Position numbers and translations under genes: made by a program
Notes under the pieces: generated by a model
Seen by the model: the letters and a program-made list of their open reading frames with translations, nothing else
Databases searched by the model: none
What the model was told of the DNA's origin: nothing
Assembly (NCBI RefSeq): GCF_056746865.1
Contig: NZ_CM163382.1
Strand: one strand, 5' to 3'
Length of the DNA: 64,000 nt
Shown: one piece after another, positions 1,623-3,196 of the stretch
Numbering within the stretch: position 1 is the first letter of the stretch
How the letters are laid out: each line of letters begins with the position of its first letter

Positions 1623-1843
1623 GTGCTCCGTTTTCAGGTTGCATATATCTCGTTGAGTTTAGCAATGTTCGCTCCAGGCACGAAGCGAGCAAGTTACCTA
1701 AGTTGAAGGTCCGCAGGGAGCGAGGAGCAGAAGTTCGAAGCACATCATGAAGTAAGTTTTAAAATGGGAGATAACTTGCTTTTACATATTTTCCAATGCA
1801 ATATCATACCCTTTTAAAAATAAATCAGATATATGAGGTGAAA

Positions 1844-2866
1844 ATGTCTAGTCTTAATTTATTCGATGATGTCGTACCTTTAGAAAAACAGCATCCAATA
1901 TATATAATGATGAAAAAGGAACGCTATGAACCGGAGAGAGAAGTAATTAACCAATGGGCAAAAGGATTTCTAGACAGGGATAATAAGTTTACAAAAGAAT
2001 TTCAAACAAGTTTTGAACCTTGCCTATGGGAGTTATATCTTTTTGCTTATCTTAAAGAATTGGGTTTAAGGAACGACTTTTCATACGATGCACCTGACTT
2101 CATCGTCAATGAACCTGGGTTTTGCATTGAGGCAACCATAGCCCTTCCGGCACAAGGAGCCCCTGGAGCGCATGGTTTCAGTACGGAAGATATGCCAAGA
2201 GATTTTAATAAGTTTAATTCTGAGGCATCTATTCGACTTAGCAATAGTTTTATATCAAAGGTAAAAAAATTAAGATCGAGATATTCTCAACTTCCTCAAT
2301 GTAAAGAAAAACCTTTTGTTATCGCCATAGCTTCCTTCGACCGACCTTTTGCGCACTTTGCCGCAGCCAGACCCATACTTGCAACATTATATGGTTTATA
2401 TCATGATGAAGAAGCAACCATTGAATCAGGATCAAAGAGCATAATTTCTTATAACGTTGAGGCTGCGGTAAAAAAAGAAAATGTTAATATAGCCATGGGG
2501 TTATTTTGCACGCCTGATTATTCGGATGTAAGTGCTGTGATTTATAGTAGTTTAGCTACTTGGGGAAAAGTAAGAGCTTTGGCGGACAATCCTTCAGCTC
2601 TAACAATTTATACAACCTTTACCCCAAGAGAAAATTCATTATATCCTAAAGTTCATCAAGCCAAAAAAAATGATTATATAGAGCATCTGGCAGATGGATT
2701 GTATATTTTACATAACCCATTTGCCAAGTATCCGTTGCCTAAAGAGACGCTAAGCCACCCTAGAGTAGCACAAGGTTATGTTGAATCTGATGGATACGTC
2801 AATTTTGTAGCGCCAGAGGATTTTCTTTTATTGCGTTTTTTACAATCATTCAATCTTAAAGATTAG
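1844..2866 (+). CDS. Hypothetical protein, AT-rich, unknown function
   Basis: ORF-track frame 1796-2866; start placed at ATG 1844, preceded by GAGGTG Shine-Dalgarno; low GC relative to backbone. Confidence 0.6.
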   Translation: MSSLNLFDDVVPLEKQHPIYIMMKKERYEPEREVINQWAKGFLDRDNKFTKEFQTSFEPCLWELYLFAYLKELGLRNDFSYDAPDFIVNEPGFCIEATIALPAQGAPGAHGFSTEDMPRDFNKFNSEASIRLSNSFISKVKKLRSRYSQLPQCKEKPFVIAIASFDRPFAHFAAARPILATLYGLYHDEEATIESGSKSIISYNVEAAVKKENVNIAMGLFCTPDYSDVSAVIYSSLATWGKVRALADNPSALTIYTTFTPRENSLYPKVHQAKKNDYIEHLADGLYILHNPFAKYPLPKETLSHPRVAQGYVESDGYVNFVAPEDFLLLRFLQSFNLKD

Positions 2867-3196
2867 TAAATATGGTCATATTTATTTACTTTACATAGAT
2901 AAAGTCTAAAGATGGCACTTCCTTTAAACTCAACTACCTATGATTTAGAGTGGTTGTCCGGCCTGCTTCCGTAACCGTTAGTTCGACTGACGAGATTCCT
3001 GTTTCCCTCTAAAAGACTTGGTTGATTAAAACAGGTCACCGAATAGCCATTTAGTCCACTTTGACCACGAAGCGACCGAACTAACTGAGCAGAAGGTCCG
3101 TTATGAGCGAGGAACGGAAGTTCACAGTTGATCTCACACCCAAATAGTCGCATTACTAACATTGCTGCGTGTTAATCAACAGGCAGCAGGTCACTC

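Follow-up and report, generated by a model that had tools for sequence, protein, structure and literature searches.

Modular double sites as probable gene-cassette boundaries in Enterobacterales mobile elements, and their linkage to a putative 200-aa tyrosine recombinase

Introduction

What are two similar pieces of noncoding DNA doing on either side of a single gene in an Escherichia coli chromosome? A stretch of 64,000 nucleotides from such a chromosome (NCBI RefSeq assembly GCF_056746865.1, contig NZ_CM163382.1; the whole stretch is called the window below) holds two diverged repeats of ~62 bp, here copy A and copy B, one upstream and one downstream of a 341-aa gene. An initial sequence-only reading called this gene unknown and offered a cassette boundary, recombination sites or a repeated structured RNA motif as explanations of the repeats. 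Here, we identify the gene as the anti-phage defence gene PD-T7-5 (PADLOC E 8e-102) and describe the family to which the repeats belong. We consider it probable that the repeats are modular double sites, which mark the boundaries of gene cassettes in Enterobacterales mobile elements and are exchanged by a linked recombinase. The literature that we searched, with raw sequence strings included, holds no name or description of the element, one 2004 paper on the P2 hotspot with site-specific recombination in its title lying outside that search.

Results

Two copies of one element in the window

The two copies lie where they had first been placed, in the same orientation and without gaps, at 76% identity over 58 nt (1679-1736 versus 3066-3123) and with 46 of 62 positions matching over 1679-1740 and 3066-3127. 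The full extent of the similarity is longer, covering 1667-1737 and 3054-3124, and in copy B the family sequence carries on to 3193, ending 3 nt short of the stop codon of the neighbouring gene DS-11. This last part (3125-3193) is unique within the window and is 89% identical to the sequence behind the McrC stop codon in many plasmids. A degenerate consensus of both copies occurs at only these two places in the window, and 100 dinucleotide-preserving shuffles yielded no match. Two covariance models, both built from relatives elsewhere, recover the copies with nothing else significant in the window: the two-site model R1 at E 4e-16 and 4e-15, and model R2, which describes the A-type site defined below, at E 1e-11 for copy A and 1.4e-14 for copy B. 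A third, partial copy is found at 4606-4622. The partial inverted copy that had been noticed at 2966-2983 is likewise real, and is kept downstream of the PD-T7-5 homologues in two further loci of our collection (L175, L176).

Architecture of the element

Each copy is made up of two related ~34-bp double-stranded DNA sites set back to back, a B-type site followed by an A-type site. The B-type consensus is GTCCGCT-NN-TGGCAC-NN-AGCGGAC with the 6-bp core TGGCAC, and the A-type consensus is TGAAGGTCCGCT-NN-GAGCGA-NN-AGCGGAAGTTCA with the 6-bp core GAGCGA; imperfect inverted arms, GTCCGCT / AGCGGA, are common to both. Read on the other strand, the B-type core becomes GTGCCA and agrees with GAGCGA at 4 of 6 positions, the arms being the same. 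Hybrid sites also occur, namely GTGCCA within A-type arms in L166 and GAGCCA in L180, where this A-like site stands ahead of a DS-11 homologue. The arms are 12 nt long, and left and right arms are consistently different. When a scan of the collection imposed the arms only, 39 of the 41 true members carried the core GAGCGA.

In a complete element, the left outer arm (TGACCTGCTCCCC-TTGATTAACAC-N8-ATGTTAGTAA) is followed by the B-type site, a linker of ~15 nt, the A-type site, a spacer of ~25 nt and the right outer arm (ACTAACAT-N8-GTGTTAATCAA-GGGGAGCAGGTCA). Only some copies are extended by outer arms, whose ends read TGACCTG...CAGGTCA. These outer arms might be accessory binding sites or ancestral element ends. 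A converging gene ends beside the right outer arm in 12 of 15 cases, often a few bases from the stop codon. The modules are often separate: lambda and P2 have the A-type site only, copy A consists of B-type site, linker and A-type site, with the remainder of the left outer arm absent beyond a remnant at 1656-1666, and copy B has the spacer and a right outer arm besides.

A recombinase gene between one B-type and one A-type site

Some 350 nt beyond DS-11, the window carries a gene for a 200-aa tyrosine recombinase that is split by an insertion sequence (IS); an intact version is found in L001 at 15949-16551. E. coli 2017C-4173W12 (NZ_CP030768, 497183-497785) is an example of a strain with the intact gene, and WP_001305755 an example of the protein. 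In every close homologue locus examined, the recombinase gene lies between one B-type and one A-type core, a direct flanking by both site types that supports the earlier suggestion of recombination sites. Downstream of the stop codon there is a conserved hairpin and then GTGCCA-NN-AGCGGAC; upstream of the start codon, the order is arm-NN-GAGCGA-NN-inner arm and then a palindrome, the full site in L140 reading GTCCTT-AT-GAGCGA-GG-CGCGGAAGCTCA. The recombinase side of each core is constant, while NN, outer arm and flank vary by locus. We have seen this arrangement in E. coli (L140, L004), Providencia, Pantoea, marine Gammaproteobacteria and at least 10 distinct viral contigs. Since the sites directly flank the gene, with constant sequence on its side of each core, the gene occupies the place of the 15-nt linker, and the 70-nt repeat reads as the recombinase-less version of the recombinase-bearing unit. 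The orientation is strict: near recombinase genes, A-type sites are on the opposite strand in 22 of 22 cases and B-type sites on the recombinase strand in 14 of 14, and the window conforms. The E. coli loci L140 and L004 have the left flank and the recombinase in common, with different genes between the two cores, and a Pantoea locus (L191) holds four sites or double sites in 6.5 kb, with one or two genes between them. Among the first 140 loci, recombinase homologues were found only in E. coli island loci. The palindrome beside the start codon (6564-6596 in the window) is conserved across genera in the homologue loci and may be a candidate operator/promoter region, serving as an autoregulatory operator.

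Of the catalytic R-K-H-R-H/W-Y residues, R51, K79, R151, H174 and Y183 do not vary among 15 homologues with 74-91% identity to the query, and conservation at H148 is at least 90%. PF00589 (Phage_integrase) matches all homologues, and the integrase family phrog_216 is matched at E 1e-28. By these signatures, the product of the linked gene belongs to the tyrosine recombinase superfamily. The family numbers at least 8000 proteins at E<=1e-10, and between its members in E. coli and those in Idiomarina and Pseudoalteromonas identity is 75-90%; no curated NCBIfam model matches it above its cut-off. More distant homologues (58-62% identity) are accompanied by comparable sites whose cores differ, which suggests recombinase subfamilies with site specificities of their own. 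In L210/L215 and L211/L213, the sites that follow these homologues read ..CCGGCCA-GA-AGCGGAT and GTCTGCT-AC-TGACCC-AA-AGCAGCC.

Backbone and cargo meet at the sites

A set of 77 distinct A-type sites combines 55 left-flank clusters with 50 right-flank clusters in 71 combinations, the family sites forming the border between conserved backbone and variable cargo. On the left, the 5' arm and its NN track the flank. The P2-like left flank, which precedes the tail-sheath gene FI, occurs with six different right flanks, its 5' arm and NN staying constant (TCTGCT-TT); one cargo (right flank GTAATCCC...) occurs with five different left flanks, its 3' NN and arm staying constant (GG-AGCAGA); and three cargos are found in both P2-like and lambda-like backbones. 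The 3' NN and arm go with the cargo in 17 of 17 sequences from five cargo groups, which puts the break of these groups within the 6-bp core.

The same behaviour can be followed at PD-T7-5, whose cassette is delimited by flank comparison to the interval from ~1724 to 3038. The two loci with PD-T7-5 homologues, at 90-92% identity, share with the window everything from the core of copy A rightwards to ...TTGATTAAAACAGGTCA (3021-3038), including the gene and the inverted fragment at 2966-2983, and their outer flanks, that on the left included, differ. On this comparison, we place the left boundary of the cassette at the core of the copy A A-type site. As the fragment at 2966-2983 is conserved downstream of PD-T7-5 homologues in phage contigs, it belongs to the 3' end of the cassette. 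L175 departs from the window ~35 nt past the breakpoint of L176, inside a B-type core. The proposal of a cassette boundary thus holds up, in that family members occupy backbone/cargo junctions of many mobile elements and the PD-T7-5 homologues keep the cargo-side half-site between differing outer flanks. The cassette end itself (3022-3040, TTGATTAAAACAGGTCA) resembles a collapsed outer arm, with an inner TTGATTAA box fused to a terminal ACAGGTCA.

Distribution of the family

Distant BLAST matches place the motif, at ~77-82% identity, in unannotated intergenic places of hundreds of E. coli genomes. Each positive genome has it at one to three places, always in prophages or islands and between hypothetical or defence genes. 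Pattern scans and BLAST added members in Rahnella, Serratia, Enterobacter and Phytobacter, and the module is also present in Pantoea. About 70 distinct IMG/VR contigs carry family members, and in ~2000 plasmids, mostly from Klebsiella, the element lies just behind the McrC stop codon. Some of the cargo genes match defence models, among them those for AriAB-like, TIR-NLR and McrBC systems. Beside McrBC, an IS110-family element sits exactly at the 5' edge of the A-type site both in a chromosome (L005, 3950-5030) and in an IncY plasmid (L134, 4950-6030); the family site may be a target of this element.

Phage lambda carries an A-type site at 27312-27349, between sib/attP and ea59, and in phage P2, fun(Z) and the FI promoter enclose one at 17417-17460. 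The lambda site (L135 2500-2543, corresponding to 27307-27350 of J02459) is unannotated, lies ~390 bp from the attP core, beyond sib, and is sense to the pL transcript 340 nt upstream of ea59; lambdoid contigs agree to its left and diverge to its right. In P2-like prophages, inward-facing A-type sites bracket the Z/fun hotspot, the first behind the tail-fibre genes and the second ahead of FI. P2 itself (L142, 15275-15370) has an outer-arm-like TGACCTCTGTTGTGAAC six bases past the stop codon of the tail-fibre assembly gene G, and behind it an inverted B-type site, GTCCACT-CT-GTGCCA-AA-AGCGGAC, so that both borders of the hotspot carry family modules.

Neither ERIC/BIME repeats nor a tRNA remnant account for these copies, and other genomes show the same association with the flanked gene. 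ERIC and BIME-REP elements are repeats of core intergenic regions, with tens to hundreds of copies in an enterobacterial chromosome. The present family was set apart from them by its one to three places per positive genome, all in islands, prophages and plasmids, and, tentatively, by comparison with the ERIC and REP consensus sequences. A tRNA- or tmRNA-derived att repeat was likewise dismissed, ARAGORN finding no tRNA or tmRNA in 1-8000.

The array in the window

The region 700-4500 of the window is present in 151 of 5426 complete E. coli genomes, beside a gene for an SgrR-family regulator. The array comprises a DHFR-family gene, copy A, PD-T7-5, copy B, DS-11, a B-type half-site, the IS-broken recombinase gene and an A-type half-site (Table 1); its two full A-type sites, at 1704-1737 and 3091-3124, are direct repeats around PD-T7-5. 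The interrupting IS3-family element contains an ALIL frameshift pseudoknot (Rfam E 6e-32, 5222-5338), and its ends (TGAACCGCCCCGG...) resemble those of IS629/IS1203. The DHFR/RibD-C-family gene (1083-1622), the immediate left neighbour of copy A, may be cargo in its own right. At ~835-1063, in the interval from this gene to that of the SgrR-family regulator, there is a frameshifted fragment of an IS3-family transposase, which is annotated in L001 at 12135-12298.

Table 1. Features of the array, in window coordinates.
Feature	Position	Strand	Basis or remark
Inner remnant TTTAGCAATG of left outer arm	1656-1666	+	Resembles the ...ATGTTAGCAATG arm end in L002, L084 and L074; weak match by eye
Copy A, B-type site GTTCGCT-CC-AGGCAC-GA-AGCGAGC	1667-1690	+	Alignment A2, model R1
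Copy A, linker (family consensus AAGCTAACTGAGC)	1691-1703	+	Alignment A2
Copy A, A-type site TGAAGGTCCGCA-GG-GAGCGA-GG-AGCAGAAGTTCG, core 1718-1723	1704-1737	+	Model R2
PD-T7-5, single-gene anti-phage defence	1844-2866	+	PADLOC PDLC04110 E 8e-102; phrog_8571
Decayed inverted fragment, A-type arm and linker	2966-2983	-	Complementary to 3113-3119 and 3077-3085
Short terminal motif GTTGATTAAAACAGGTCA, right end of PD-T7-5 cassette	3021-3038	+	L176 diverges right after CAGGTCA
Copy B, degenerate B-type site GTCCACT-TT-GACCAC-GA-AGCGACC	3054-3077	+	Model R1 alignment
Copy B, linker	3078-3090	+	Alignment A2
Copy B, A-type site AGAAGGTCCGTT-AT-GAGCGA-GG-AACGGAAGTTCA, core 3105-3110	3091-3124	+	Model R2
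Copy B, spacer and right outer arm ...ACTAACAT-N8-GTGTTAATCAAC-AGGCAGCAGGTCA	3125-3193	+	
DS-11, CBS-domain anti-phage gene, neighbouring cassette	3197-4294	-	NCBIfam NF053863 E 2e-121, 405 bits (cut-off 260)
B-type half-site GTCCGTT-TC-TGGCAC-AG abutting the 3' end of the recombinase gene	4606-4622	+	
Conserved hairpin GGGCTGCAACAGCAGCC between recombinase stop codon and B-type core	4623-4647	-	In all close homologue loci
Recombinase, C-terminal part, residues 122-200	4648-4886	-	tblastn, 100% identity
1310-bp IS3-family IS within the recombinase gene, 3-bp ATA target duplication	4887-6196	+	Open reading frames; ends read
Recombinase, N-terminal part, residues 1-122	6198-6563	-	tblastn
33-bp palindrome ACTCAAATCTCC...GGAGATTTGAGT with perfect 12-nt arms, between recombinase start codon and A-type site	6564-6596	.	
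A-type half-site GTCCCTT-AT-GAGCGC, 39 nt upstream of recombinase start codon	6603-6617	+	Flank departs from other loci past the core

RNA, hairpin and promoter tests

A further explanation takes the repeats for structured RNA, either a small RNA or an RNA element that regulates the cargo genes in cis. Sense-oriented sites do lie 70-340 nt upstream of a cargo gene at copy A of the window, at lambda ea59 and at P2 fun(Z). Against this, an Rfam 15 scan of 1-8000 at E<=10 gave no match at either repeat. Some 90% of alignment cells are paired, and covariation does not rise above shuffles, 141 of 500 of which reach the observed value. At the variable stem positions of the A-type site the arms are independent (CG 21, TG 14, CA 4, TA 4), the excess of G-T over A-C being the one expected from independent arm frequencies; mismatches in the B-type site show no excess of G-T over A-C (4 versus 7). 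As RNA or as single-stranded DNA, the copies in the window show no folding advantage over shuffles (z -0.5 to -2), and RNAalifold paired the wrong arms. A scan of the window found no promoter-like or terminator-like signal overlapping either copy. Orientation relative to the flanking genes is mixed, with many copies antisense to both neighbours. We interpret the independent arms, weak folding and lack of covariation as pointing to a double-stranded DNA site for protein binding, with two half-sites and an asymmetric core, and consider the RNA explanation, with which the sequence-only reading had also reckoned, to be scarcely credible.

Two promoter-type candidates were set aside: a sigma-54 promoter in the TGGCAC core, whose -12 GC element occurs in a minority of copies only (alignment A2), and a sigma-70 promoter or a terminator in the outer arm, for which the scan gave no match.

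Discussion

Alternative explanations

Gene exchange at these sites might instead be driven by homology, through RecA-, Red- or RecT-type recombination at a conserved linker, with the sites kept for some other role, such as protein binding or regulation, and the recombinase gene being one more piece of cargo. This account, to which we give a minor share of the probability, has a precedent in the PeSL motifs of T4-type phages (PMC2839356, PMC4122927), would fit the many site copies (indeed most) that have no recombinase nearby, and draws on right-flank groups R4, R7, R12, R25 and R42, whose junctions are off the 6-bp core, the break lying elsewhere within the site. It sits less easily with backbones as unrelated as those of P2 and lambda, which share only ~34 bp with several mismatches, given that 17 of 17 sequences from five cargo groups break within the core. 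Nor would it lead one to expect that both site types flank the recombinase in every close homologue locus, with breaks at both cores, or that sites keep one orientation relative to the recombinase in 36 of 36 cases, and the sites have none of the promoter- or terminator-like signals that a PeSL-like process would involve. The sharp ends of complete copies raise another thought, that of a decayed miniature inverted-repeat transposable element or mobile insertion cassette, in other words the remnant of a non-autonomous DDE transposon with 5'-TG...CA-3' ends, inserted beside genes, whose internal palindromes bound a transposase or resolvase. The inverted ends TGACCTGC...GCAGGTCA of complete copies in L074 and L119 form sharp junctions, and the right arm is often a few bases from a stop codon. 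We see no target-site duplication at the complete copies, however, and no associated transposase, the only consistently linked protein being the tyrosine recombinase; the copy number is only one to three per genome; and most copies have lost one or both ends, the conserved, junction-forming part being the internal sites. A transposon origin of this kind is improbable.

We judge it more improbable still that the sites are a single-stranded DNA signal, that is, a hairpin serving as PriA-type primosome assembly site (ssiA / n'-pas) or as HUH nick site, with recombination as a by-product. The thought arises from ColE1 (L141), where GTCAGTGAGCGAGGAAGCGGAA at 1343-1364, ~130 nt downstream of the origin and on the displaced strand, matches the family motif at 17 of 18 nt; the same string occurs in pBR322/pUC backbones, and in a subset of ColE1-type plasmids the homology to ColE1 stops exactly at the motif (query position 365-368). 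The motif presumably falls in the region that has been described as ssiA / n'-pas. Published work places ssiA downstream of the origin (PMC3167613). The independence of the A-type arms, the B-type mismatches without G-T excess and the folding at shuffle level all speak against a hairpin, and neither covariance model, R1 or R2, detects ColE1. By eye, ColE1 1343-1367 (GTCAGTGAGCGAGGAAGCGGAAAAG) resembles a diverged A-type site.

Comparison with known systems

On the defining features that we tested, the family falls outside the integrons, XerCD modules, Fim switches, Rfam families, ERIC/BIME and PeSLs. The closest analogue is the integron in function and the loxP/FRT type in site architecture. 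As in integrons, a tyrosine recombinase gene stands beside its site, mostly single, promoter-proximal genes lie between imperfectly palindromic sites in direct orientation, arrays are bounded by repeated sites beside the recombinase gene (Pantoea L191, E. coli L140 and the window), cassettes are common to unrelated replicons, and anti-phage genes are over-represented among the cargo. Unlike IntI, which has ~320 aa and an extra domain, the 200-aa recombinase consists of the catalytic domain only, and its best NCBIfam match, the XerA/integron-integrase model, reaches 46 bits against a cut-off of 220. Moreover, two different sites (GAGCGA and GTGCCA) flank the recombinase, and cargo lies to either side; the sites come in back-to-back pairs; there is no GTTRRRY box and no sign of the selection for a folded bottom strand known from attC with its R''/L''-L'/R' boxes; and the copies are scattered over phage and plasmid hotspots instead of one platform.

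The pdif/XerCD modules of Acinetobacter plasmids offer a further parallel, with arm-spacer-arm sites bracketing modules that reassort between replicons. They rely on the host XerCD, whereas here a dedicated small recombinase is embedded between the sites, a fixed 6-bp core lies within a 10-bp gap, and the sites are unlike the XerC/XerD consensus. Membership in XerCD was dismissed both for the sites, whose arms by direct reading do not match the established consensus of the 11-6(8)-11 site, GGTGCGCATAA / TTATGTTAAAT, and for the protein, which scores 39 bits with the XerC model and 25 with XerD against cut-offs of ~330. FimB and FimE are alike in size (~200 aa); a Fim-type invertase was rejected at 16-21 bits against cut-offs of ~220, and because the sites are direct repeats (36 of 36) and not one inverted pair around a promoter. 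With loxP and FRT, the sites share a layout in which inverted arms of ~12-13 bp enclose a short, asymmetric spacer, and this spacer sets the polarity. The A-type arms GAAGGTCCGCT / AGCGGAAGTTC (alignment A3) agree at 8 of 11 positions each with the FRT arms, GAAGTTCCTAT / ATAGGAACTTC, a likeness judged by eye that may be due to chance. Partial resemblances to XerCD/dif, Rci sfx (GTGCCAA), Hin/Gin, IS3/IS407 ends and the ISCR/IS91 oriIS (GAACTTCC) go no further than short string likenesses.

Like the sites described here, PeSLs are short conserved intergenic motifs that flank variable open reading frames in hyperplastic regions and mark points of module swapping (PMC2839356, PMC4122927); they combine promoter and terminator and presumably act through homologous recombination, whereas our sites show no such signal, have their breaks concentrated at the core and have a linked recombinase. 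Studies of the P2 Z/fun hotspot touch on the same places, since the hotspot border carries an A-type site and many of the cargo genes are defence genes. The P2/P4 hotspot study PMC9122126 left the recombination pathway open and suggested cos-proximal recombination; the sites are unmentioned there.

A proposed cassette mechanism and its implications

Several observations weigh against exchange of the double sites by the linked recombinase. No recombination event has been observed, and in the window the recombinase gene is inactivated by the IS. The block of DHFR-family gene, PD-T7-5 and DS-11 is clonal, at least 99.9% identical in 127 E. coli genomes, and the 5426 E. coli genomes contained no empty-site or excised allele of the locus; with recombinase broken, block clonal and no empty allele, the array in the window looks frozen. 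In lambda, P2, the plasmids and most viral contigs, the DNA examined holds no recombinase gene, so that action in trans or ancient events have to be assumed. The 3' NN is unlinked to the flank in 4-5 right-flank groups, so not every junction is at the 6-bp core, and the model does not account for the outer arms (TGACCTG...CAGGTCA).

With these points in mind, we envision the following process for the double sites. The autonomous form would be the 200-aa tyrosine recombinase gene between one B-type and one A-type site, and the linked recombinase would exchange strands at the 6-bp cores. Given that A-type and B-type cores are different, we propose that the sites are heterospecific, A pairing only with A and B only with B. 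Like sites are direct repeats in the array, so recombination between them would excise the intervening gene as a circle, and this circle could then re-enter any like site in a phage, plasmid or island. Our comparisons show the family, its site architecture, its behaviour at junctions, its link to the recombinase gene and its polarity; both the catalysis by the linked recombinase and the movement of cassettes as circles are steps that we infer. We further suggest, as a possibility short of probable, that the family constitutes a previously unrecognised integron-like gene-capture system of Gammaproteobacteria. In such a system, a conserved 200-aa recombinase between the heterospecific sites GAGCGA and GTGCCA, together with recombinase-less double sites in variable hotspots, would move single-gene defence cassettes (PD-T7-5, DS-11, McrBC, TIR-NLR, AriAB-like) between unrelated elements.

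If this is true, the double sites would provide a concrete, testable mechanism for the rapid turnover of defence genes at fixed hotspots of prophages, satellites, plasmids and islands, and would explain why P2-like and lambda-like backbones carry the same cargo, attached at identical base positions. The two covariance models and the recombinase family would then serve as a handle to delimit cassettes and to mine new defence genes, as attC does for integrons, and lambda, P2 and possibly the ColE1 origin region would each hold an unannotated functional site.

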